Shown here: positions 42,881-59,032 of the stretch, one piece after another | Position numbering within the stretch: the first letter of the stretch is position 1 | How the letters are laid out: every line of letters starts with the position of its first letter | Made by a program: the position numbers and the translations under genes | Assembly: GCA_964348835.1 (NCBI GenBank) | Contig: CAYGEA010000001.1 | Span: 5,201-69,200, forward strand | Reading direction: 5' to 3' | Source: an uncultured Bdellovibrionales bacterium | Lineage (GTDB): Bacteria > Patescibacteriota > Minisyncoccia > Moranbacterales > UBA1568 | Length of the DNA stretch: 64,000 nucleotides | Notes under the pieces: generated by a model | Seen by the model: only the letters and a program-made list of their open reading frames with translations | Database searches by the model: none | Told to the model about the DNA's origin: nothing

Positions 42881-42943
42881 GAAGAGGGAAACAAGACTTC
42901 ATAGATGTCTCCACCAGCCACCCGAAGAGAGAAATATCCGATT

Positions 42944-43708
42944 ATGATGAAAAAATCTCCAACCCATCCTCTCCGCGCGCGTTTTGCGAAAGATATAGTA
43001 GCCGAAGTGATACTCCCGATACAACAGACGGGGCGAGTGGCGATTTTTGCCGGCGGACTGCCTTCGTCACCGAACAAGGGGAGTCTTCTTCGATTTTTGG
43101 CTCGCCAGGGATACGTTGCTATCTATCCCCGTTATCGCGGCACATGGGAAAGCGACGGTTTTTTTCTTGAACGTTCACCCACGCAAGACATCCGCGATGT
43201 CATTGACGATCTTGCTAAAAATAAGGGCTTTACAGACATCGCCACGGGAGAATTCCAAAAAATAAAAGTGTCTGCCATCCATCTCTTCGGCTCATCCTTC
43301 GGGGGACCAGCCGTCATACTAAACAGTTACCCGCCCATCGTCAAGAAAATCATCGCGCTCGCTCCGGTACTCGACTGGCACTCGGTTGAAAAAACCGAGC
43401 CGCAGAAGTCGCATATCCGTTTTGTCGAGGCAGGTTTCGGCGGCGCGTACCGTCTCCGTCACAAAAGCGATTGGAAGAAACTTCTCAAAACGGATTTCTA
43501 TAATCCCTCCGCTCATACAAAGACCATCATCGGCAAAAAAATATTCATCCTGCACTGCGCGGATGATACCGTGGTGCCATCCGCACCCATACGCTCATTT
43601 GCTGAAAAAACCGGCGCCGCATATTACCTCAAACCGAAGGGTGGTCACGCTATCAATATCACTCATTTGTTTTTCTGGAAGAAAATCAGCGCTTTTGTAA
43701 ATACTTAA
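42944..43708 (+). CDS. Alpha/beta-hydrolase fold protein (dienelactone hydrolase / S9-like)
   Basis: Nucleophile elbow GSSFGG, and a C-terminal His in KGGHAI. Confidence 0.55.
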   Translation: MMKKSPTHPLRARFAKDIVAEVILPIQQTGRVAIFAGGLPSSPNKGSLLRFLARQGYVAIYPRYRGTWESDGFFLERSPTQDIRDVIDDLAKNKGFTDIATGEFQKIKVSAIHLFGSSFGGPAVILNSYPPIVKKIIALAPVLDWHSVEKTEPQKSHIRFVEAGFGGAYRLRHKSDWKKLLKTDFYNPSAHTKTIIGKKIFILHCADDTVVPSAPIRSFAEKTGAAYYLKPKGGHAINITHLFFWKKISAFVNT

Positions 43709-43786
43709 ATTATTTATACCAGGACGAAACACTTCCTGGTGTTTTATAATCTTGTAAAAAATGTATATTACCATAAAATCTTTCTT

Positions 43787-45007
43787 ATGGAAGAAAAAAT
43801 CTCGCGAGGCGTAACCATACTCGGCTCCACTGGCAGTGTCGGTATGAGTACCTTACAAGTCATAGCGGAACAACGGGAAAAATTTCACATTGTCGCTTTG
43901 ACGGCTTTTTCTCAGGCGGAAAAAATGTTTGAGCAGTGTCTCTTGTTTACGCCACAGTACGCCGTTCTAGTAGATAAATCCTCAGCTCAGTGGCTCACAC
44001 AAAAACTCCATGAAGCGGGCTCGACAACCAAAGTACTCGCTGGGAGAAAAAATTTGGAGTATGCTGCTTCGCTCCCTGATGCGGAAATAGTTATGGCCGC
44101 TATCGTCGGCGTTGCCGGGCTTTGTGCTACTCTCGCCGCCATAACTGCCGGAAAGACGGTATTACTCGCGAACAAAGAGTCTTTGGTGGTTGGCGGTACC
44201 TTTTTTATGGACGCGGTCAAAAAGTATGGCGCGACGCTCTTACCGATCGACAGCGAACACAACGCTATTTTTCAGTGCTTACCGGAGACCTACGCTGGCG
44301 ACAAAACTAAGTCGGGGATTCGACGCATTCTCTTGACGGCGTCCGGAGGCCCATTTCGCACAACGCCTGCTCTTGATATGGGAAACGTCACGCCCGATCA
44401 AGCCTGCGCGCATCCACAATGGAAAATGGGAAGAAAGATATCCGTCGACTGTGCCACAATGATGAACAAAGGCTTAGAGGTCATCGAAGCGCATTTTTTA
44501 TTTCACATCGCACCGAAACATATACAGATAGTCGTCCACCCACAGAGCATTATTCACTCTCTGGTGGAATACACCGATGGATCTGTCATCGCCCAATTAA
44601 GCAACCCCGATATGAAAACACCGATCGCTCATGCCCTCGGATACCCTAAGCGTCTGAACACAAACATACCATCACTCGATTTTTTCAAGATTTCTCAACT
44701 GACTTTTGAAGAACCTGATTTCATAAAATTTCCCTGTCTACAACTCGCTTACAAGGCACTCGAAGAAGGGGCTGGTGCTCCGGCTATCTTAAACGCCGCT
44801 AATGAAATTGCCGTGGAAGCCTTCCTGAAAGAACGCATCCGATTTGTCGATATACCACGGATACTCGCCTCTGTTTTAGAACATTTTCCACGCACATTAC
44901 CTATCCGCACCCTTGCTGACATCATACGCCTCGACAAAGCGGTACGAAAGTTTACGCAAGCTTACATCATCAATGAATTACAGAGTGTCGAGCAAAAAGT
45001 CTCATAG
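43787..45007 (+). CDS. dxr: 1-deoxy-D-xylulose-5-phosphate reductoisomerase
   Basis: Contains GVTILGSTGSVGMSTLQVI (NADPH site), LANKESLV and DSEHNAIFQC. Confidence 0.85.
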   Translation: MEEKISRGVTILGSTGSVGMSTLQVIAEQREKFHIVALTAFSQAEKMFEQCLLFTPQYAVLVDKSSAQWLTQKLHEAGSTTKVLAGRKNLEYAASLPDAEIVMAAIVGVAGLCATLAAITAGKTVLLANKESLVVGGTFFMDAVKKYGATLLPIDSEHNAIFQCLPETYAGDKTKSGIRRILLTASGGPFRTTPALDMGNVTPDQACAHPQWKMGRKISVDCATMMNKGLEVIEAHFLFHIAPKHIQIVVHPQSIIHSLVEYTDGSVIAQLSNPDMKTPIAHALGYPKRLNTNIPSLDFFKISQLTFEEPDFIKFPCLQLAYKALEEGAGAPAILNAANEIAVEAFLKERIRFVDIPRILASVLEHFPRTLPIRTLADIIRLDKAVRKFTQAYIINELQSVEQKVS

Positions 45008-45390
45008 AACTCCCTGTACATTATTTTTCTTCTCTCAAGACTCCCCCGCCATTTTTTCAAAAAAGAGGGGAGGATTGTCCGGTGAAAAGATGAAGGTACT
45101 TATCCCACATTATAGAGACGCTGATACGAACAAAGAAACAGCGTAAAAAATAACACAAGGAGAAGGAGGGACAGGGAGATATATATCAAAAAGATATTGG
45201 AAAGGTCTCAGAACGCATTTTATGAGCTCGTTTTAAAAAAAAGAAAAAACGGCAGCGGTGGAGTCTATACATACAATCACGCGCGCTTTAGATACATCTG
45301 CTCCTATAGTAATGTCGCATAAGTTACATAGAACGACGTACAGTGTATCTCTGAAGGAACCACTCTATATTGAAATACCAAGAAAAACAG

Positions 45391-46029
45391 CTACCCCCTC
45401 TCACTAACTGGATTGGGATATGCCGGAATAGATAATACTTTCTTTATAAAGTTGTCCATGGTAATGAGCTCAATATTCTCAGGAAACTTAATCTTCTTTC
45501 GTTCAACAAGTAACGACACATCCCCTTCAGTGAGTTTTTTTGAAAACAATACCAAATACATTTTTTCTTTTAAATGTGAATATTTTCGAACTTTGATATA
45601 CACATTCGACGAAAGATCATGCGGTGTTTCTGTCGTAAAGATATCTACAGAGAAATTTTCAATCGGATTAAATACATAAAAATCAGCACGGAGCTTTTTT
45701 TCTGTATCGATAGGCTTTTCTAGGTGTACGAACGGTTCATGGAATTTTGCATATAAAATATCTCTCAATCTAGCCTCACTTATTCTAGAGCGTTGATTTG
45801 ATTCAAAACCAATTTTTGATCGATGCTCACCTTTTGAGAGATAAACATCTTTATGTCCAATTAATTTTCGGAGCTGTGGAAGTCCCCCAAATAATCTTTG
45901 AATCTGACGACTTGACGGTAAATATTCAAATTTATCCACCTCTTGAGAAGCAGGAAGTCTCCCGTACTTTTTTTGAAATCGCTCAAAACCATCTTTTATT
46001 TTTTCTAAAGTCCATCTTTTAGCGCCCAT
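45391..46029 (-). CDS. Hypothetical protein, AT-rich; downstream partner of the AAA+ ATPase
   Basis: 212 aa with no recognisable motif. A possible degenerate D...D/E..K pattern is RADFYVFNP...SVDIFTTET...YIKVRKY. Compositionally atypical. There is a 46-nt gap after the ATPase gene on the same strand. Confidence 0.5.
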   Translation of the reverse strand: MGAKRWTLEKIKDGFERFQKKYGRLPASQEVDKFEYLPSSRQIQRLFGGLPQLRKLIGHKDVYLSKGEHRSKIGFESNQRSRISEARLRDILYAKFHEPFVHLEKPIDTEKKLRADFYVFNPIENFSVDIFTTETPHDLSSNVYIKVRKYSHLKEKMYLVLFSKKLTEGDVSLLVERKKIKFPENIELITMDNFIKKVLSIPAYPNPVSERG

Positions 46030-46074
46030 ATACGATACTTCAAAAAAATATTTAATCTCTTGTTTTTACGAATC

Positions 46075-47265
46075 TTATTTTTTAATATCAAAAATTGGCA
46101 TAATCCGTTTCATGAAATCTCCAAATAATGGAACAGTAAATTCTGTATCTCCATACGCGGGACTATATATCATTCCCTTAGCAATTAAATTACTTCTGAA
46201 TGGAGCAACTTTTTGAACATCAGTATTGAGTTTCTCTGCTATGTCTCCAGATCTATGCGGTCCGGGGCCAAGTTCTGCCATAGCTCTTAGATATTCCCTC
46301 TCTCTTGGTGTTAGTCTATCAAAGCGAACTCTAAAAAAATTTTGATCCAGTCTACTGATTGATGCACTAGTCGCTCTTTTTAGAACATCTACACCCACAG
46401 GTGATTTTTCAGCAATTTCCCAAGATTGATACCCCCACTCTTGTAAAAAATATGGATATTTTTCTGTGATTCGTAAAATTTCTTTGAGAGCTTCATGAGT
46501 AAATTTTACTCCTTCTGCTTTCATCGGTTCTTGCAATGCTTTCATGGCGTCTTCATCAGATAGAGGGCCTATTTCAGGATAATTAAACAATCTTTCTGCG
46601 TATGATTTAGCATTACCAGCTTTTCCACGAAGTTGTGGTAATCCAGCCCCAATAATTACTAGCGGAAGAGATTTTTGAGAAATTTTATGTGAAGCCATTA
46701 TCAAAGAGCTAAGCTCTTCTTCAGACAAATATTGCATCTCGTCGATAATAAGAACTATTGCGGTTTCAGAAGCACGGGCCGCTTCACCTAAAGCAATAAA
46801 TAATTGGGCAAGATCAGCCTCAAGGTCACCACTATCAGCAGTTCCTTTTTCAGGATTAATATCAATTCCAAGCTCGACCTCTTGTATTTTTACCCTTAAA
46901 CCTGAAACAAAACTCTTCAGTACTCGTAGGCCTCTTTTTACCTTTTCATTGACACCTTCTTTTGCATCTAAGCTGAAAAGAAGTTGTCGTAGATAAGGGA
47001 TCAAAAGTTCTGGTAAAGCCTTATTTTCATGGGCTTCAATCATAACAACCTTGTAGCCGTCTGTTTCAGCAAGCTCAGAGATTTTATGCAAAAGTACGGT
47101 CTTCCCTACACCGCGTAGACCTACTAATAAAAGACTTTTCTCTGGACGACCTCTTTTCACTCGAGCAAGAGCCAGCATAGCTTTTTCAAGAATCTCTGAC
47201 CGACCAGCAAGCTCGGGAGGTGGAGTTCCGGCGCCTGGAGAAAAGGGGTTTCGTAAAGGATCCAT
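46075..47265 (-). CDS. AAA+ ATPase of the Arch_ATPase/AAA_16 (STAND-like) type with C-terminal winged-helix-like region
   Basis: N-terminal NPFSPGAGTPPPELAGRSEILEKAMLAL...LLLVGLRGVGKTVLL (Walker A). Walker B is IVLIIDEMQYL. C-terminal segment is LTPREREYLRAMAELGPGPHRSGDIAEKL. Both this gene and its 212-aa partner are AT-rich. Confidence 0.65.
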   Translation of the reverse strand: MDPLRNPFSPGAGTPPPELAGRSEILEKAMLALARVKRGRPEKSLLLVGLRGVGKTVLLHKISELAETDGYKVVMIEAHENKALPELLIPYLRQLLFSLDAKEGVNEKVKRGLRVLKSFVSGLRVKIQEVELGIDINPEKGTADSGDLEADLAQLFIALGEAARASETAIVLIIDEMQYLSEEELSSLIMASHKISQKSLPLVIIGAGLPQLRGKAGNAKSYAERLFNYPEIGPLSDEDAMKALQEPMKAEGVKFTHEALKEILRITEKYPYFLQEWGYQSWEIAEKSPVGVDVLKRATSASISRLDQNFFRVRFDRLTPREREYLRAMAELGPGPHRSGDIAEKLNTDVQKVAPFRSNLIAKGMIYSPAYGDTEFTVPLFGDFMKRIMPIFDIKK

Positions 47266-47442
47266 TGATTGTATATAGTTTAATAAGTTTATCTATATTA
47301 TCTTTAAACTAGCATAATTTTACTAAACTTGTAAAGACTGGTAAAAAATGGAGTCACAAAATAGGGCTGTTCTCTTACAGAACTCTCTATTTTTCCCTAT
47401 TGATTACTCATGAAGCTTGAGCAGCGGTTTAAAAAATAAAAA

Positions 47443-47478
47443 CGGAAGGTGCTGGGATCAGCTCCTTCCGGATTTTTT
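47443..47478. terminator. Rho-independent terminator downstream of the GGDEF gene
   Basis: CGGAAGGTGCTG ggat CAGCTCCTTCCG stem followed by GATTTTTT. An A-run lies on the other side. Confidence 0.6.
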
Positions 47479-47484
47479 GATAGT

Positions 47485-48291
47485 TTACGATACTATACCT
47501 TTCTTTTCTTTCAGAACGCGGTTGCGTCCCTGATCTTTGGCCACATATAAGAGTGCATCCGTCCTGCTGACAAGGTCAGCAAAGATATTCTCACTGGTGA
47601 GATGCAGATTGGCAACCTCCGTTTCCGCAATGCCGACACTGACCGTCACAGATAGCCTTTGCTGACGCTGATCATCCAGATGAATAATCGTTCTTTCGAT
47701 GGCATCACGAAAAATTGATGCCTGATCGTAAGCATACTGTATGCTTGATTGCGGAAGGACGATGAGAAATTCTTCCCCGCCCCAACGGCCAAGAATTTCT
47801 CCTTGGCGGTGACTGAAATATTCACCTATCAGATTACTGACAAGAACCAGCATCTGATCGCCCACCGTATGACCATGACGATCATTAACTGATTTGAAAT
47901 GATCAATGTCGATCATCAGCGCCACCACGTTTGGTGCCTTACGATGTTCTCCAACATCACGCATCGAACGTTTCCACGCATTGACCATCGCCGAAAATCT
48001 CAATTCAATACCACGCCTGTTGGCAAGTCCTGTGAGCGGATCTGTCACAGATTGCTCCAGTGCAACCTCAAGCGCCCGTTGAGTGACTTGCAGTTCCCTC
48101 TTAGCCTTTTGAAGACTTCTCTCAAGCTCGGCAATTTCCTCCGCCGGGCCAAATATGTCTCCTCCTCGGCTAAGGTATATTCCGTGACTCAGTGTAGGGT
48201 TGATGTTATCACCAAGCGTCACACCAAGATTGTGTTTGTTTGCATCATCACGCATTGTTCGTATTACCCTCCAGTTGTTGAGAAAAAACAA
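47485..48291 (-). CDS. GGDEF-domain diguanylate cyclase (no obvious sensor domain)
   Basis: Contains DPLTGLANRRG, ALMIDIDHFKSVNDRHGHTVGD and RWGGEEFLIVLP (GGEEF active site). About 100 aa of N-terminal coiled-coil-like leader. Confidence 0.8.
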   Translation of the reverse strand: MFFLNNWRVIRTMRDDANKHNLGVTLGDNINPTLSHGIYLSRGGDIFGPAEEIAELERSLQKAKRELQVTQRALEVALEQSVTDPLTGLANRRGIELRFSAMVNAWKRSMRDVGEHRKAPNVVALMIDIDHFKSVNDRHGHTVGDQMLVLVSNLIGEYFSHRQGEILGRWGGEEFLIVLPQSSIQYAYDQASIFRDAIERTIIHLDDQRQQRLSVTVSVGIAETEVANLHLTSENIFADLVSRTDALLYVAKDQGRNRVLKEKKGIVS

Positions 48292-48382: not shown

Positions 48383-49627
48383 ATGAAAGAAACGATTTCT
48401 CTGATACAATATAATGGAGTTATAAGTATTCCGTATCAGTCCGCGTTAAGTCGGCATAAGTCTGCCTGTATGCGCATATCATACTCTGCCCTCGACACCT
48501 ATCAGACCTGCCCCTTGAAATACAAGTTCCGGCAGATAGACAAGATCAAAGAGCCCAAGTCCAAGGAGGCTGTTTTTGGCACGCTCTTACACTCAGTCCT
48601 CCACTACATCCACACGCCCGCCATCCTCTCCCCCTCTGTCGAACAGGCGCTTGATTATTTCGCCAAGGGTTGGAACAGCGAAGTGTATGAAAACGAGATG
48701 GAGGAGCGCGCGGCATTCTCTCAGGGCGTCACCATCGTCCAGAACTACCTCGCTCGGACCAAACCCGCAGACTACAACATCGTGGCGCTCGAAAGCCGTT
48801 TCGCCATAGAGATCGGCGACGACGAGTCCGGCAAGCACATCGTCTCGGGCATCATCGACCGCATCGACAAGACTGCGGACGGCTACGAGATCATCGACTA
48901 CAAGACCACGCGCAAGATGCCTTCGCAGGACAAGGTGGACAACGACATCCAGCTCTCTATTTATCTGCGCGCGTTTCTCGAACGCTACCCCAAAGAAATT
49001 GATAACCTCGACAAAATTACTGTCAGCCTCTACTACCTCAAGCACGGCGTAAAACTCTCTTCCAAGCGCACTCACGAACAACTGAAAAGTCTGGAAAAAA
49101 CATTTCTCGATGTCATCCACTCCATCGAAGAAGAGCAGTTCGACCCGATCCTCTCCCCTCTCTGCGACTGGTGCGGATACCAAAACATCTGCCCGCTCTG
49201 GAAACATAAATTTGCCGAGACCCGCAAACTGGAAACCGAAGAAGTCCACACCGCCATAAGCGAGTACCTCGACATCAAAGGAAAATTGAGCGAGGAGAAA
49301 CTGCGCCTCGCCAAACTACAAGCCATTATCCTTCAATATATGGAACAGGAGGGTGTTGATCGCGTGTTCGATGACAACGGCATCATCGCCAAATCGCTCC
49401 GCAAAACCTACAAATACGATGAGAAGAAACTGCGCGCCATCCTCGAACCGCTCGACAAATGGGAATCGGTGCTCAAAGTAGACGGCATCGCGCTGCGCAC
49501 TATCCTTGCCGTTCTCCCCTCCCCGACCCGCCAAGAAGCCGAGGAAGCCAAAGTACTCGATAAAGAAAGTACCACTCTCTCCGTCAAGAAAAACAAGATT
49601 GAAGCTGATGATGATTTGGCTTTTTAA
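48383..49627 (+). CDS. PD-(D/E)XK nuclease superfamily protein, RecB/AddB/Cas4-like with 4-Cys Fe-S cluster
   Basis: N-terminal YSALDTYQTCPLKYKFRQI, core SGIIDRIDKTADGYEIIDYKTTRK (D...E-x-K), QLSIYL (QxxxY), and C-terminal CDWCGYQNICPLW. About 130 aa of C-terminal extension with unknown function. 414 aa. Confidence 0.7.
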   Translation: MKETISLIQYNGVISIPYQSALSRHKSACMRISYSALDTYQTCPLKYKFRQIDKIKEPKSKEAVFGTLLHSVLHYIHTPAILSPSVEQALDYFAKGWNSEVYENEMEERAAFSQGVTIVQNYLARTKPADYNIVALESRFAIEIGDDESGKHIVSGIIDRIDKTADGYEIIDYKTTRKMPSQDKVDNDIQLSIYLRAFLERYPKEIDNLDKITVSLYYLKHGVKLSSKRTHEQLKSLEKTFLDVIHSIEEEQFDPILSPLCDWCGYQNICPLWKHKFAETRKLETEEVHTAISEYLDIKGKLSEEKLRLAKLQAIILQYMEQEGVDRVFDDNGIIAKSLRKTYKYDEKKLRAILEPLDKWESVLKVDGIALRTILAVLPSPTRQEAEEAKVLDKESTTLSVKKNKIEADDDLAF

Positions 49628-51815: not shown

Positions 51816-52322
51816 TTATTCCTCAAGAAGATCTTTCGTCTGTTTAATTGAAGTGAGCTTTATAAGTTTACCATGGTCTTCTATCTTAGCTAAAAACCTG
51901 TCGAGGGAAATAGCCTCTCCTTTCGTCCATACAAGCTTCATAAACTTCCAATCAAATTTTTCAGGACTGCCTTCTAACTCTGGACGGGGATCTTTTCTGT
52001 GTTTTAACCATCTTTTAAAATAACGAATCACAGCGACAATGGGCGGATAATCTAGATAAATAATTGTATCTGCACGAGTAAAAATAAAAGTACGCGCCTC
52101 TTTGCTGATATAACCTTCAATAATCCACTTGTCTCCGGCACCTATCTCTTCCAATTTTTTAACAGTTTCTGTATCCCCAATATACTGCCACCCCGGATTC
52201 CACATAATTGAATCCATGAGAAAAAGAGGTAACTTTAATTTTTCAGCAAGTTTTCTTGCAAATGTTGATTTTCCTGAAGCGCTGACTCCTACAATAACAA
52301 TCTTTTTTCCAAGGTTATTCAT
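51816..52322 (-). CDS. P-loop NTPase / nucleotide-kinase-like protein (AAA_33 / topology-modulation-like)
   Basis: MNNLGKKIVIVGVSASGKSTFARKLAEKLKLPLF carries the Walker A. About 168 aa. AT-rich. Confidence 0.55.
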   Translation of the reverse strand: MNNLGKKIVIVGVSASGKSTFARKLAEKLKLPLFLMDSIMWNPGWQYIGDTETVKKLEEIGAGDKWIIEGYISKEARTFIFTRADTIIYLDYPPIVAVIRYFKRWLKHRKDPRPELEGSPEKFDWKFMKLVWTKGEAISLDRFLAKIEDHGKLIKLTSIKQTKDLLEE

Positions 52323-52345
52323 ACTCTTCTCAGTTGAGGTTCTGG
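52313..52345. repeat. Direct repeat copy B
   Basis: See copy A. It overlaps the kinase start codon and the 12 nt upstream of it. Confidence 0.7.
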
Positions 52346-52359
52346 GACAACATGACAAC

Positions 52360-52902
52360 TTATTTAACAAGTTCCACTAACAAGGGGAATTCTTTATAGG
52401 GTTGCTTATGAGTGGTTGAGCCCATATGTCCATCATGGCGAATAATAAGTTTTCCTCCCAGATTGTCAGCCATAATCTTCCCTTGTGTATCATCGCAACC
52501 CCATGGGTCGTTGTCGGAATTAATGAAGATAAACTCTTTGGCTTTTCCTCTTATTGCATCCCAGTGAAATTCCTCTTCATTTTTCTCACTTTCCAAATCT
52601 TTACGTAATGCCTTGGCATAACCAGAGACCAAGATAGCTTGCTTGACTCTCACATTAATATTTTCCAGCACACTTAAGATTACTTGAGAACCTGCGGAAT
52701 GGTCAATGAGCACCGTTTCCTCGGTAAATGTACCACCAGAGAGGATAAACGGTAACCATTCTTTAAGATTTGGGTAATCATCATTGGGTAATTGAGGTAG
52801 CCAGACATCGTATCCTATTTTTTCTAACTCATTTTTCAAATACGGAAACCAGAACTCATCTTTTTTTGTTCCGGTACCATGAAGTATGATGGCGTTCTTC
52901 AT
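52360..52902 (-). CDS. Serine hydrolase, YdeN/RBBP9-like alpha/beta hydrolase
   Basis: MKNAIILHGTGTKKDEFWFPYLKNELEKIGYDVWLPQLPN...LIDHSAGSQVIL matches the PF06821-type esterase family. 180 aa. Confidence 0.6.
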   Translation of the reverse strand: MKNAIILHGTGTKKDEFWFPYLKNELEKIGYDVWLPQLPNDDYPNLKEWLPFILSGGTFTEETVLIDHSAGSQVILSVLENINVRVKQAILVSGYAKALRKDLESEKNEEEFHWDAIRGKAKEFIFINSDNDPWGCDDTQGKIMADNLGGKLIIRHDGHMGSTTHKQPYKEFPLLVELVK

Positions 52903-52948
52903 AAAATACTTTGCTGAGGCTCTGGGATGAAGTTAAAACCTATTTGAG

Positions 52949-53599
52949 TCAAATTGATGTAAAATCTTGAATTGAACCTTCTTTCATGTCAATGTATTTT
53001 ATTCCGAGTGGCTCAAGGAGCATGATAGGAATTCTACGGGTTGGCCCGAGCTGGTGTTCCTGACGGAGCATGCCGTCATGCACCGGAAATACTACTTTTG
53101 GTTTGATGAGCTTAGCATATTCGATAGCTTCTTCAAGTTTCATCCAGGGGCCAGAAACAGGGAGGGCTAAAATACTAATATTCTTATCTGGATTGTGAAA
53201 AGAATCTCCTGGATAGAAGAGAGTTTTATTAATATAAAAGCCAGTGTTTTGAACCTTGGGGAGATCACGGTGAATGCATGCATGTTCACTCCCGCAACTT
53301 TCGATACTGATGTCCTTGATAATTATTTCTTCTCCATCGGTAATTGATGAGTAAGTAATATTTGCTTCATCAAGAATTTTTCCGACACTCGCATGAGAAA
53401 TGATTTTTGTTTGTGGGTTTTTTATCAAGATTTCTTTTAAAGCATCGACATGCAGATGATCTTGATGTTCGTGCGTGATGAGAATGACATCGATATCTTT
53501 GACATCGGTCGTAGCATTGTAATTTCCAGGGTCAGTCAAAATACAAAGTGCTTCCACTTCAATAAGTAAACAACAATGACCGAATTTAGTAATTTTCAT
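52949..53599 (-). CDS. MBL-fold metallo-hydrolase
   Basis: HxHxDH motif ILITHEHQDHLHVD. I prefer ATG 53599 (MKITKFGHCCLL) because it avoids overlap with the tRNA. Confidence 0.7.
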   Translation of the reverse strand: MKITKFGHCCLLIEVEALCILTDPGNYNATTDVKDIDVILITHEHQDHLHVDALKEILIKNPQTKIISHASVGKILDEANITYSSITDGEEIIIKDISIESCGSEHACIHRDLPKVQNTGFYINKTLFYPGDSFHNPDKNISILALPVSGPWMKLEEAIEYAKLIKPKVVFPVHDGMLRQEHQLGPTRRIPIMLLEPLGIKYIDMKEGSIQDFTSI

Positions 53600-53610
53600 A
53601 AATTTGTATG

Positions 53611-53681
53611 CTGGGGTGCTAGGAATCGAACCTAGGATCATAGGACCAGAACCTATTGCCTTACCGCTTGGCTACACCCCA
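53611..53681 (-). tRNA. tRNA-Gln (anticodon CUG)
   Basis: Manually folded. Acceptor stem TGGGGTG/CACCCCA, D-arm GCC-AAGCGGTAA-GGC (identical to the E. coli tRNA-Gln D-arm), anticodon stem ATAGG/CCTAT with loop TTCTGGT, T-arm CTAGG-TTCGATT-CCTAG, discriminator G. No encoded CCA. Position 37 is G, which is unusual. Confidence 0.8.
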
Positions 53682-57455: not shown

Positions 57456-58250
57456 CTAACTTTTCAAAACTCGCTTCGTCTCTCCATCAACGGAAAAGAA
57501 CTCGATAATTTTCATATTGTTCTTTTCAACAAAAACGACAATGAGGTTGAGCAACAAAGCAAGCAAGACAAGGTATGCGCCTCCGGCGAATACCGATGGG
57601 ATGTCATACAACGAACCCGAGCGAATCATAAAATGTCCGAGTCCTTGGTTTGAGGAGATAAATTCTCCGATGAACGCACCGAGAAGAGCGAAACCGACAT
57701 TGAGTTTCATTGAGGCGAGAACCCAAGAAAGCGAGGACGGAAAAATGACTTTTTGGAAAATCTGAAAGCGCGTTGCGCCGAAGATTTTCAAAAGCCGAAA
57801 TTCCTCAATATCAACACTTTTCGCTCCCTCGTATGCTTGGGTAAGAGCGACAAGAAAAGCACCAAGTGTCGCCATCGCGATTTTCATACTCAAGCCAATA
57901 CCGAACCAAACAATAACCATAGGGGCAAAGGCAAATATCGGGATTGCACCAAAAATCACGATGTATGGCCTAAAAATACGCGCTACAAGCGGCGAATACC
58001 AAAGAACGAACCCTGTTATAGTTCCGAAGATTACGCCGAGGACAAAGCCCGTTAATGCCTCAAAACCAGTTATGAAAAAGTCGCCTACGAGAAGTCCACT
58101 TGCGGTATTTTGAACAAGCGAAGCCCAAATTTCCGAAGGTGAGCCAAAAAGAAAATTAAATCGTGGAAATTGAGTAGCAAACACTTGCCACACTGCAAGT
58201 ATGAAAACAAAAAGTAAAAACGGTGAGATTTTGTAAAGTAAGTTTTTCAT
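57456..58250 (-). CDS. ABC transporter permease, NitT/TauT (SsuC/TauC-like) family
   Basis: Six TM helices. Start ATG 58250 overlaps the upstream ATPase stop (ATGA). Confidence 0.7.
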   Translation of the reverse strand: MKNLLYKISPFLLFVFILAVWQVFATQFPRFNFLFGSPSEIWASLVQNTASGLLVGDFFITGFEALTGFVLGVIFGTITGFVLWYSPLVARIFRPYIVIFGAIPIFAFAPMVIVWFGIGLSMKIAMATLGAFLVALTQAYEGAKSVDIEEFRLLKIFGATRFQIFQKVIFPSSLSWVLASMKLNVGFALLGAFIGEFISSNQGLGHFMIRSGSLYDIPSVFAGGAYLVLLALLLNLIVVFVEKNNMKIIEFFSVDGETKRVLKS

Positions 58251-59032
58251 ACTTGTTTGCTCATCAATTTCCATATCCGCTCAAAAAGTTCTTGAAAATC
58301 TTTACTCTTTCGTACATTGACTGGATCGCGGTATTCATCGGGAATATTGATATTCGTTTCATAAATAATTTTTGCCGGTCTTTCACTGAACACAACAAGT
58401 TTATCGGATACTGCGATTGCTTCCTCGATATTGTGCGTAACAAAAATGGCGACTTTTTGAGAGGATACAATATACGAACGAATTTCTTTCATCAACTGCA
58501 GGCGTGCGTCAAAATCTATCGCCGAAAAGGGTTCGTCAAAAAGCACAATATCGGAATCTTGAAGCAAGGTTCGTATAAGAGAAACTTTCTGCCTCATTCC
58601 GCCAGAAATTTCTGCCGGATAAGATTTTTCAAACTGCGCCAACCCGTTCTTTTGTAATAAATTTCTTGCTTCAACAACAGAAGTTTTAAGACTTTTCTTC
58701 TGTATTTCAGCAGGAAGCAAAATATTACCTAAGAGCGTTCGCCACGGCAGAAGCAAGTCCTTTTGCGGAACATATCCGACGGAACCCTGTACAGAAATTT
58801 CTCCGGTTGTTGTCTTTTCAAGACCGCTAATGATATTGAGAAGTGTTGTTTTTCCCGAACCGCTTCTGCCGACAATAGCAAGAATTTCACCAGCCTTTAC
58901 ATCAAGCGAAATATTTTCTAATACCGACAATTCCCCTCCGTTGGAGGGAAATTGTTTTGATATATTTTCAGTTTTTATCGAAGCAATACTACTTTGCTCG
59001 CTCCGAGAAGTTGGTAATGACATAGTTTTCAT
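58247..59032 (-). CDS. ABC transporter ATP-binding protein, NitT/TauT (SsuB/TauB-like) family
   Basis: Walker A GRSGSGKTT, signature ISGGMRQKVSLIRTL, Walker B IVLFDEPFSAID. Confidence 0.8.
   Translation of the reverse strand: MKTMSLPTSRSEQSSIASIKTENISKQFPSNGGELSVLENISLDVKAGEILAIVGRSGSGKTTLLNIISGLEKTTTGEISVQGSVGYVPQKDLLLPWRTLLGNILLPAEIQKKSLKTSVVEARNLLQKNGLAQFEKSYPAEISGGMRQKVSLIRTLLQDSDIVLFDEPFSAIDFDARLQLMKEIRSYIVSSQKVAIFVTHNIEEAIAVSDKLVVFSERPAKIIYETNINIPDEYRDPVNVRKSKDFQELFERIWKLMSKQV

Follow-up and report, generated by a model that had tools for sequence, protein, structure and literature searches.

A Patescibacteria AT-rich islet that probably joins a mobile ATPase gene to a resident nuclease-like gene

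The AT-rich islet at positions 45008-47484 of the window (the whole 64,000-nt stretch of DNA analysed here) is very probably a composite, in which a mobile ATPase gene has landed beside a resident nuclease-like gene, and not a module. The layout, folds, distribution and synteny of the genes, and the absence of co-occurrence, are direct results, whereas their biochemical activities and any part in defence are inferred. The ATPase gene is read as a single-gene insertion because co-occurrence of the two genes is absent in both directions, and because relatives have the GGDEF gene followed directly by the partner. Adjacency, shared AT-richness, and the look of an "ATPase plus small unknown" are insufficient to call a defence module; two-way co-occurrence and composition across relatives told the mobile gene from the resident one.

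The layout of the islet agrees with a preliminary description made from the sequence. Two genes on the minus strand, one for the ATPase (46075..47265; 396 aa) and one for its partner (45391..46029; 212 aa), lie between dxr, which ends at 45007 and is convergent with the partner gene, and a GGDEF diguanylate cyclase gene (47485..48291, minus strand; Pfam GGDEF, 4.9e-33), with both flanking identities supported by Pfam. The pair is co-directional as claimed, but the gap between them measures 45 nt, not 46. A sliding-window GC check bears out the AT-richness: the islet has a GC of 0.372, against 0.470 for the window, and no other 2477-nt segment in the scan falls as low (z = -3.46). The ATPase gene has a GC3 of 0.24 and the partner one of 0.28, while six neighbouring genes range from 0.45 to 0.67. 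Neighbours in the window include dxr, S15 hydrolase, M23, GluRS, GGDEF, PDDEXK_1 and ABC transporter genes.

The convergent dxr and partner genes are separated by 383 nt of AT-rich sequence (45008..45390) that contains no RNA family and no significant structure, and an Rfam scan of 44.0-48.5 kb gives nothing meaningful. No integrase, IS element, tRNA junction or flanking repeat is found around the islet, nor does it have a defence-island or mobile-element location; comparison of its flanks for direct and inverted repeats gives short chance-level matches only, plus one 14-nt perfect inverted repeat.

The ATPase and its family

The proposed placement of the ATPase among Arch_ATPase/STAND-like proteins holds. 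Walker A (GLRGVGKT, residues 49-56) and Walker B (LIIDEMQY, residues 171-178) are both present, and the protein passes AAA_16 (PF13191; 67.3 bits, cut-off 32.6) and falls below the gathering cut-off of ATPase_2 (PF01637; 29.4 bits against 33.2). Its fold agrees with that of solved Arch_ATPase members (AAA+ core, lid, C-terminal winged helix). The chain stops after the winged helix, at residue 396, and neither an effector domain nor TPR, LRR or WD40 repeats are found; compared with the STAND immune NTPases (Avs/AVAST, NB-ARC NLRs, MalT), it lacks both the N-terminal effector and the C-terminal repeat sensor. Identity to the Arch_ATPase/PF01637 proteins PABY2304 of Pyrococcus abyssi (2qen) and SSO1545 of Sulfolobus (2fna) is only 16-17%, and in contrast to these the family of the window ATPase is bacterial, extremely conserved, horizontally mobile, and often located inside R-M operons. 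A PDB sequence search was uninformative for ATPase and partner alike.

Homologues number more than 8000, at 69-78% identity, and come from sequences that bear the names Gammaproteobacteria, Levyibacteriota, Peregrinibacteria, Roizmanbacteria and Bdellovibrio/Patescibacteria; the mean column identity of the family is 76% over 36 aligned sequences with names from several phyla. The family appears in 121 plasmid records, annotated only as "ATP-binding protein" and surrounded by TA, recombinase and IS genes; a Legionella plasmid (NZ_CP021275.1) is among the carriers. IMG/VR contains no homologue, GenBank phages yield two weak matches, and literature searches found no paper characterising the family. 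Of 77 loci, in a sampling skewed towards the query, 20 have R-M genes flanking the family member. Three operon types are represented, as the ATPase gene recurrently separates subunit genes of type I, type III-like and type ISP-like restriction operons, one such order being HsdR-HsdM-[ATPase]-HsdS. These contexts suggest, through guilt by association only, a link of the family to defence or R-M. A PADLOC search for a named defence system returns nothing for the partner and, for the ATPase, only a weak best match to mad8 (3e-7, 28 bits, in the P-loop region), the rest being P-loop-level noise. Both mad8 and the ATPase associate with methyltransferase-containing loci, but the match is partial as well as weak, and no other mad genes of the MADS system occur in the window.

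The family, in which an ATPase core is combined with a helical lid and then a winged helix, moves as a solo gene among phyla and plasmids. The ATPase may be a switch that binds DNA and is driven by ATP, comparable to Orc1/Cdc6/TnsC; it would form oligomers on DNA and, with no effector domain of its own, would modulate or complement restriction or conflict functions. An alternative that we consider unlikely, though not far-fetched, is that the ATPase is not conflict-related, and serves instead in the replication, partition or maintenance of mobile elements (an Orc1/Cdc6-, Hda- or TnsC-like DNA-loading ATPase), hitch-hiking into chromosomes. An Orc1/Cdc6-like replication factor had been named in advance as an identity at odds with the defence proposal; the ATPase does not reach the cut-off of the Orc1/Cdc6 model NCBIfam TIGR02928.

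Co-occurrence and transcription of the two genes

The two-gene defence-type module of the preliminary description finds no counterpart elsewhere, as the ATPase is absent from all 43 non-self partner loci, and the partner from all 91 non-self ATPase loci. The sampled loci represent the 80 best of 430 metagenome matches and one genome per species, and most leave room to detect a neighbour: the upstream sequence reaches 1.3 kb or more in 39 of the 43 partner loci, and the downstream sequence 0.8 kb or more in 67 of the 91 ATPase loci. At 36 genome loci, tblastn with the ATPase gives no match closer to the partner than about 8 kb, and the ATPase is likewise not near the partner in L124-126 or L134-137. 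The two genes occur together only in the window and in L041-43, three contigs that other samples yielded for this organism. Two further genes, one of 230 aa that follows the ATPase homologue in L037-39 and one of 212 aa in L131, proved unrelated to the partner. A conserved module of ATPase and partner is not supported.

The pair had also been credited with its own flanking stem-loops, but the only significant hairpin is the intrinsic terminator of the upstream GGDEF gene (47431..47470, minus strand; hairpin 47470-47443 plus a U-run), with a folding energy of -20.1 kcal/mol, z -3.9, and 0/200 shuffles. An equivalent hairpin and T-run follow GGDEF in relatives, as is visible in the alignment of L126 and L001. 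This terminator shields the ATPase gene from transcription that begins further upstream. The promoter-like hexamer pairs ahead of the ATPase start codon (TTTACC-17-TAAAAT and TAGATA-16-TACAAT, 47268..47345, minus strand) are consensus matches only, in numbers not above shuffles. Downstream of the partner, and in the gap between the genes, no hairpin is significant. The AT-rich gap from the ATPase stop to the partner start (46030..46074, minus strand; fold -4.7 kcal/mol, z +0.6) has, on the minus strand, neither a promoter-like nor a terminator-like site. Read-through from ATPase into partner is likely, since the gap is 45 nt long and lacks a terminator; the co-transcription proposed earlier is plausible, the two genes are probably expressed together, and their proteins could interact.

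This arrangement would also fit a nascent, lineage-specific system, in which the arrived ATPase (sensor or motor) has been wired to the resident nuclease (effector), a reading that we hold to be improbable. Arch_ATPase-like AAA+ domains fused to PD-(D/E)xK nucleases are known from the DUF1703 and DUF234/COG1672 proteins (PMC1913061, PMC3424549), so an ATPase-nuclease pairing is biochemically sensible, and the nascent system would be a split analogue of these fusions. DUF1703 (PF08011/PF09820) and DUF234 (PF03008, COG1672) proteins have the same two domain types, but here these reside in two adjacent genes whose adjacency is limited to one lineage, and neither ATPase nor partner has a sequence match to PF08011, PF09820 or PF03008. 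The arrangement is stable in the three further contigs of the organism. L124, which encodes the closest partner homologue (78%), has in the same slot, 60 nt upstream of the partner, a different P-loop NTPase of 498 aa, with weak nSTAND3/AAA_16 matches and unrelated to the window ATPase; this NTPase has 143 homologues. The L124 arrangement might mean that NTPases and the nuclease associate repeatedly, and not just that insertions favour this site; that the slot upstream of the Patescibacteria nuclease recruits interchangeable P-loop NTPases, with the nuclease as common effector for swapped-in sensors or motors, is a decidedly long shot. Weighing against a nascent system are the partner and ATPase loci without co-occurrence and the overwhelmingly solo occurrence of both families, each conserved independently of the other gene, and a fused operon is what one would expect to arise whenever a gene is inserted between another gene and its promoter. 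In the composite reading, the ATPase gene would be horizontally acquired cargo that, in one Moraniibacteriota-like lineage, was inserted after the GGDEF terminator and ahead of the partner; the insertion probably displaced the partner's own promoter, which would leave the two genes co-transcribed with no evolved functional partnership.

The partner, a resident Patescibacteria gene

The partner family occurs mainly in Patescibacteria (851 representatives), where its neighbours are GluRS, M23, cysteine desulfurase/NifU and C39_2. Conserved synteny with core genes, an outcome that the preliminary description had listed beforehand as speaking against its own proposal, is what the partner displays across Patescibacteria. 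GGDEF, the ancestral immediate upstream neighbour, is followed directly by the partner with no ATPase between them in L001-3, L126, L134, L136 and L137, and the arrangement PDDEXK_1(-), GGDEF(+), partner(+), then convergent M23-GluRS-WecG-LigT, is found in L137, L136, L126, L125 and L001-3. The window has the relatives' order, PDDEXK_1-GGDEF-partner-M23-GluRS-WecG-LigT, plus an extra ATPase. The PDDEXK_1/Cas4-like nuclease gene (48383..49627, plus strand; PDDEXK_1 4.5e-37, Cas4 models 2e-13) is a conserved syntenic anchor of the partner locus; 14 non-self loci have it as well as the partner, with identities of 42-84%, and the identities of the two proteins co-vary (Spearman 0.80, p 0.001). Of 31 loci, 27 have a partner gene whose GC3 is below the locus mean (Wilcoxon 6.5e-8). 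The partner is a vertically inherited resident gene, not a foreign one, and its AT-richness is a trait of the whole family; the claim of a compositionally foreign islet stands for the ATPase gene and fails for the partner.

That the entire 2.5-kb islet, partner included, arrived as one acquired foreign block is highly improbable. Both genes and both spacers are AT-rich, as such a block would be, but partner orthologues occupy the same syntenic slot in at least nine relatives without the ATPase, partner divergence tracks that of the neighbouring PDDEXK_1, and the partner is AT-rich in nearly every genome. The spacers flanking the ATPase were aligned with the GGDEF-to-partner spacers of L001, L003, L124-126, L134, L136 and L137, and no insertion junction (target duplications, terminal repeats) could be defined because the spacers of these relatives are too diverged to align. 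An ATPase ancestral at the locus and lost from all sampled relatives is scarcely credible, as it has no direct support beyond these undefinable junctions, would need many independent losses, and sits poorly with closest homologues (75-78%) found in unrelated contexts and with a GC3 below that of the seven other genes measured in the region.

The 212-aa protein consists of an N-terminal four-helix HEAR-like domain and a C-terminal domain with the core alpha-beta-beta-beta-alpha-beta fold of the PD-(D/E)xK superfamily. The earlier guess of such a nuclease core was a good one: the fold is found, and the residues that it pointed to, D116 (beta2), D129 (beta3) and K146 (on the following helix), are invariant across the family. 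The canonical (D/E)xK lysine position is taken by an invariant Phe (D129-I-F131), and K146, the sole invariant Lys, may, to judge from its conservation, stand in for the missing lysine. The N-terminal motif, W-x-x-E-x-I-x-x-x-F-x-x-F-x-x-x-x-G-R-x-P ... LPS-x-x-x-I-x-R-x-FGG-L, is like that of HNH_repeat/HEAR (PF18780) at sub-threshold level (12.8 bits, E 0.16, cut-off 26, for the window protein), with sub-threshold matches of E below 1 in 17 of 34 family members (best 2.4e-4). Unlike HNH_repeat proteins, the partner has a single copy of the motif, attached to PD-(D/E)xK rather than HNH, and its gene is syntenic rather than mobile. The HEAR-like domain is putatively DNA-binding. Viral collections contain no partner homologue, and a BFVD search gives generic endonuclease-fold matches only, with low TM-scores.

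PD-(D/E)xK comparators of the partner are Bax1, Burkholderia CdiA-CT, and the type II REases of the NgoMIV/PspGI/EcoRII group. The partner differs from these in its Phe at the lysine position with K146 on the next helix, in being small and free-standing with a HEAR-like N-domain, and in that no methyltransferase, immunity or XPB partner gene is near its gene. We infer that the partner is a Mg2+-dependent DNA endonuclease, in which the HEAR-like domain would position a core of E85, D116 and D129, with the lysine K146 supplied from the following helix. Its role would be in housekeeping DNA repair or recombination, or it may be a domesticated homing-type nuclease.

Both families may deserve specialist attention, the ATPase family as a testable candidate restriction accessory or regulator, and the partner family for its HEAR-like domain, a PD-(D/E)xK core whose lysine is relocated, and a synonymous AT bias that persists despite vertical inheritance. 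Should the idea of swapped-in NTPases prove true, the locus would amount to a modular version, split over two genes, of the fused AAA+/PD-(D/E)xK proteins, caught during assembly.

Composition and co-occurrence of the AT-rich gene pair

Between dxr (43739..45007, plus strand) and a GGDEF gene (47485..48291, minus strand) lie two minus-strand ORFs 45 nt apart, one for an Arch_ATPase-like AAA+ protein of 396 aa (the ATPase, 46075..47265) and one for a protein of 212 aa (the partner, 45391..46029). The preliminary description of this stretch is confirmed in what it observed, apart from flanking stem-loops belonging to the pair: the ORFs are present, and GC at 45008-47484 is 0.372 vs. 0.470 for the whole window, lower (z = -3.46) than in any other sliding window of equal length. 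The deviation is located at synonymous sites: GC3 is 0.45-0.67 in six neighbor genes but only 0.24 in the ATPase and 0.28 in the partner.

The proposal that the two genes form a novel defence module is not supported by their distribution in either direction. A scan of one genome per species yielded 36 loci with partner relatives, most with 8 kb upstream, and tblastn with the window ATPase found no match in any of them; nor does the ATPase occur in seven further contigs carrying the closest partner homologs (65-78% identity). Conversely, no partner relative is found in the ATPase-homolog loci (84 metagenome, four from further contigs, three plasmid). In total, 43 non-self loci encode the partner, 39 of which extend at least 1.3 kb upstream, and 91 non-self loci encode the ATPase, 67 of which extend at least 0.8 kb downstream; not one has both genes. 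Besides the window, just three contigs carry the pair; they belong to the same organism and come from other samples.

GC is also low (0.37-0.41) in two other patches of the window, 52001-53500 and 58001-59000. A tRNA-Gln gene (53610-53681, minus strand) overlaps the annotated 5' end of ORF 52949..53641, whose start is therefore probably further downstream. A 14-nt perfect inverted repeat, AGCTTCATGAGTAA / TTACTCATGAAGCT, has one arm within the ATPase ORF (46489-46502), and its second arm (47404-47417) falls in the ATPase's upstream spacer; chance alone would give about 0.01-0.03 pairs of this kind per 2.7 kb.

Synteny and transcription around a probably inserted ATPase gene

Seven loci from other genomes (L001-L003, L126, L134, L136, L137) share the order PDDEXK_1 (minus), GGDEF (plus), partner (plus), then convergent M23 peptidase, GluRS, WecG and LigT; another, L125, has the same order minus GGDEF. 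The window departs from this order only by extra genes: the ATPase between GGDEF and partner, and an S15 hydrolase and dxr on the other side of the partner. In more distant Patescibacteria the partner's neighbors are likewise core genes (GluRS, M23, cysteine desulfurase/NifU, C39_2 peptidase, PDDEXK_1), and the identities of partner and PDDEXK_1 to their window counterparts co-vary (Spearman 0.80, p 0.001), as expected under vertical descent. The idea of a compositionally foreign islet holds for the ATPase, which was acquired, and fails for the partner, which is resident and belongs to a family that is AT-rich as a property. What looks like one islet thus combines an acquired gene with AT-rich spacers and a resident gene whose AT-richness is intrinsic.

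Only one stem-loop is significant, at 47470-47443 on the minus strand and followed by a U-run (-20.1 kcal/mol, z -3.9, 0/200 shuffles). Lying directly after the GGDEF stop codon, it is the terminator of that gene; the gap between ATPase and partner is without structure and no significant stem-loop lies downstream of the partner, so the pair does not have the stem-loops of its own once ascribed to it. In relatives, GGDEF ends in a hairpin and T-run, and a TATAAT-like box lies upstream of the partner. The window keeps the same kind of terminator, now followed by the ATPase, and the minus strand has no promoter-like site ahead of the partner. The insertion would separate the partner from what used to be its promoter region, and to judge from these signals the partner is probably now transcribed from the ATPase promoter, which would explain the operon-like look of the pair with no evolved partnership.

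A different NTPase occupies the same slot in L124, a locus whose partner homolog (L124:2726-3367) is the closest to that of the window (78%). There a 498-aa P-loop protein (L124:1169-2665, plus strand) is encoded 60 nt upstream; its matches to nSTAND3, ATPase_2 and AAA_16 are all marginal, it has no similarity to the window ATPase, and its 143 homologs, where named, are all from Patescibacteria. Such a recurrence might reflect a modular NTPase-nuclease association, a combination that is biochemically meaningful given that DUF1703 and DUF234/COG1672 proteins unite an Arch_ATPase-like AAA+ module and a PD-(D/E)xK domain in one polypeptide (PMC1913061, PMC3424549). We consider this very improbable. 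Among the loci compared, the 498-aa protein adjoins the partner in L124 only; an insertion hot spot is the best fit to two different NTPases in one slot.

Several other features of the neighborhood deserve record. The S15-type hydrolase and dxr (42905-45007) stand between M23 and partner only in this lineage, dxr adjoining the partner in no other locus, so that a second local difference in gene content flanks the partner. Direct succession of GGDEF (47485-48291 in the window) and partner is conserved in the clade of the seven loci; since both come with a terminator and promoter-like signals of their own, this arrangement need not mean that they are functionally linked. A 414-aa PDDEXK_1/Cas4-like nuclease (48383-49627, plus strand; Cas4 models 2e-13) has counterparts linked to the partner in 14 other partner-bearing loci, at 42-84% identity (58-84% in all except L018); neither a CRISPR array nor cas genes turned up near it. 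Two contigs of the window's own organism from different samples differ by two genes, of 212 aa and 139 aa, present at L043:1063-2173 and not in L042, near a Ser_hydrolase gene: strain-level variation a few kb from the islet.

The putative nuclease family of the partner

The partner has no matching family in Pfam, NCBIfam or PADLOC. Its 85 close homologs are, where named, mostly from Patescibacteria (Moranii-, Nomura-, Paceibacterota, Saccharimonadales), with a minority from a few Chloroflexi/Dehalococcoidia and Bdellovibrionales-labelled MAGs, and a profile search collects 851 cluster representatives, almost all of them 200-290 aa long and free-standing. D116 (RADFYVF), D129 (SVDIF) and K146 (YIKVRKY), the residues already singled out from the sequence, are invariant, and E85, H102 and E104 nearly so. 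By its fold the partner belongs to the PD-(D/E)xK nucleases, a known kind, as had been guessed at the domain level. An invariant Phe (F131) occupies the canonical beta3 lysine position, and the putative catalytic lysine appears to come from the following helix. The N-terminal motif, W..E.I...F..F....GR.P ... LPSSRQIQR.FGGL, gives sub-threshold matches to PF18780 (homing-endonuclease-associated repeat) in 17 of 34 members, a resemblance to be taken as a lead, not as membership.

Among 31 Patescibacteria loci (window 45391-46029 and orthologs in L001-L035, L125 and L126), partner GC3 is lower than the average of the locus around it in 27 (Wilcoxon 6.5e-8; mean difference -0.125) and is the lowest of any gene in 19, so its AT-richness is a family property and no sign of recent arrival. 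It persists despite synteny and apparent vertical inheritance.

The ATPase family and restriction loci

The ATPase belongs to the Arch_ATPase-type AAA+ proteins, also a known kind and also correctly guessed: AAA_16 matches above cut-off (3e-18) and ATPase_2 just under it (29.4 bits vs. 33.2). Many P-loop families, nSTAND5 and nSTAND6 among them, match at noise level. In NCBIfam the only matches are Hda, Orc1/Cdc6 and RFC, all below threshold, and in PADLOC only mad8 matches, weakly (3e-7). The family is very large (more than 8000 homologs scored) and unusually conserved, with 76% mean column identity over 36 aligned sequences. The best 120 homologs, at 69-78% identity, carry source names from Gammaproteobacteria, Levyibacteriota, Peregrinibacteria, Roizmanbacteria and Bdellovibrio/Patescibacteria. 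Homologs at 50-61% identity occur in 121 plasmid records (Legionella, Protochlamydia, Sphingobium, Rhodococcus, others), annotated solely as "ATP-binding protein" amid toxin-antitoxin, recombinase and IS genes. Viral collections essentially lack the family; the only substantial match is a full-length homolog at 40% identity (MT837995.1:1116-2315) in an unannotated 5.9-kb record that comes from human faeces and is named "Bacteriophage sp."

No neighbor family is constant, 249 neighboring ORFs falling into 173 clusters. Restriction-modification genes flank the homolog in 20 of the 77 loci with callable neighbors, in three distinct arrangements, each of which places it between subunits of a different class of restriction operon: type I HsdR-HsdM-[ATPase]-HsdS (L080, L081, L085, L115, L119, L121, L123), ResIII helicase-[ATPase]-N6_N4 methyltransferase (L056, L058, L076), and SNF2/PLD helicase-[ATPase]-type ISP-like methyltransferase (L071, L072, L075). 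Elsewhere homologs lie beside Fic, SocA_Panacea or RelE/ParE genes, and some have ordinary housekeeping surroundings, for example lnt and lptFG. This is what one would expect of a mobile gene that travels alone and favors restriction loci; by association only, it supports a putative conflict-related role, and the restriction-embedded homologs suggest a putative, uncharacterized accessory or regulatory role in restriction. In the window, no restriction system adjoins the ATPase.

Beyond the folds, motifs and distribution shown for both proteins, the ATPase would be an ATP-dependent DNA-binding switch of the Orc1/Cdc6/TnsC/MuB kind, assembling on DNA via its winged helix and acting on, or alongside, restriction complexes, presumably with no catalytic effector of its own. 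The partner would be a DNA endonuclease that requires Mg2+ and is positioned by its helical N-domain, and may serve in housekeeping repair or recombination or represent a domesticated homing-type nuclease. What is worth following here is the restriction-embedded ATPase family on one hand and the persistently AT-rich nuclease family of Patescibacteria on the other.
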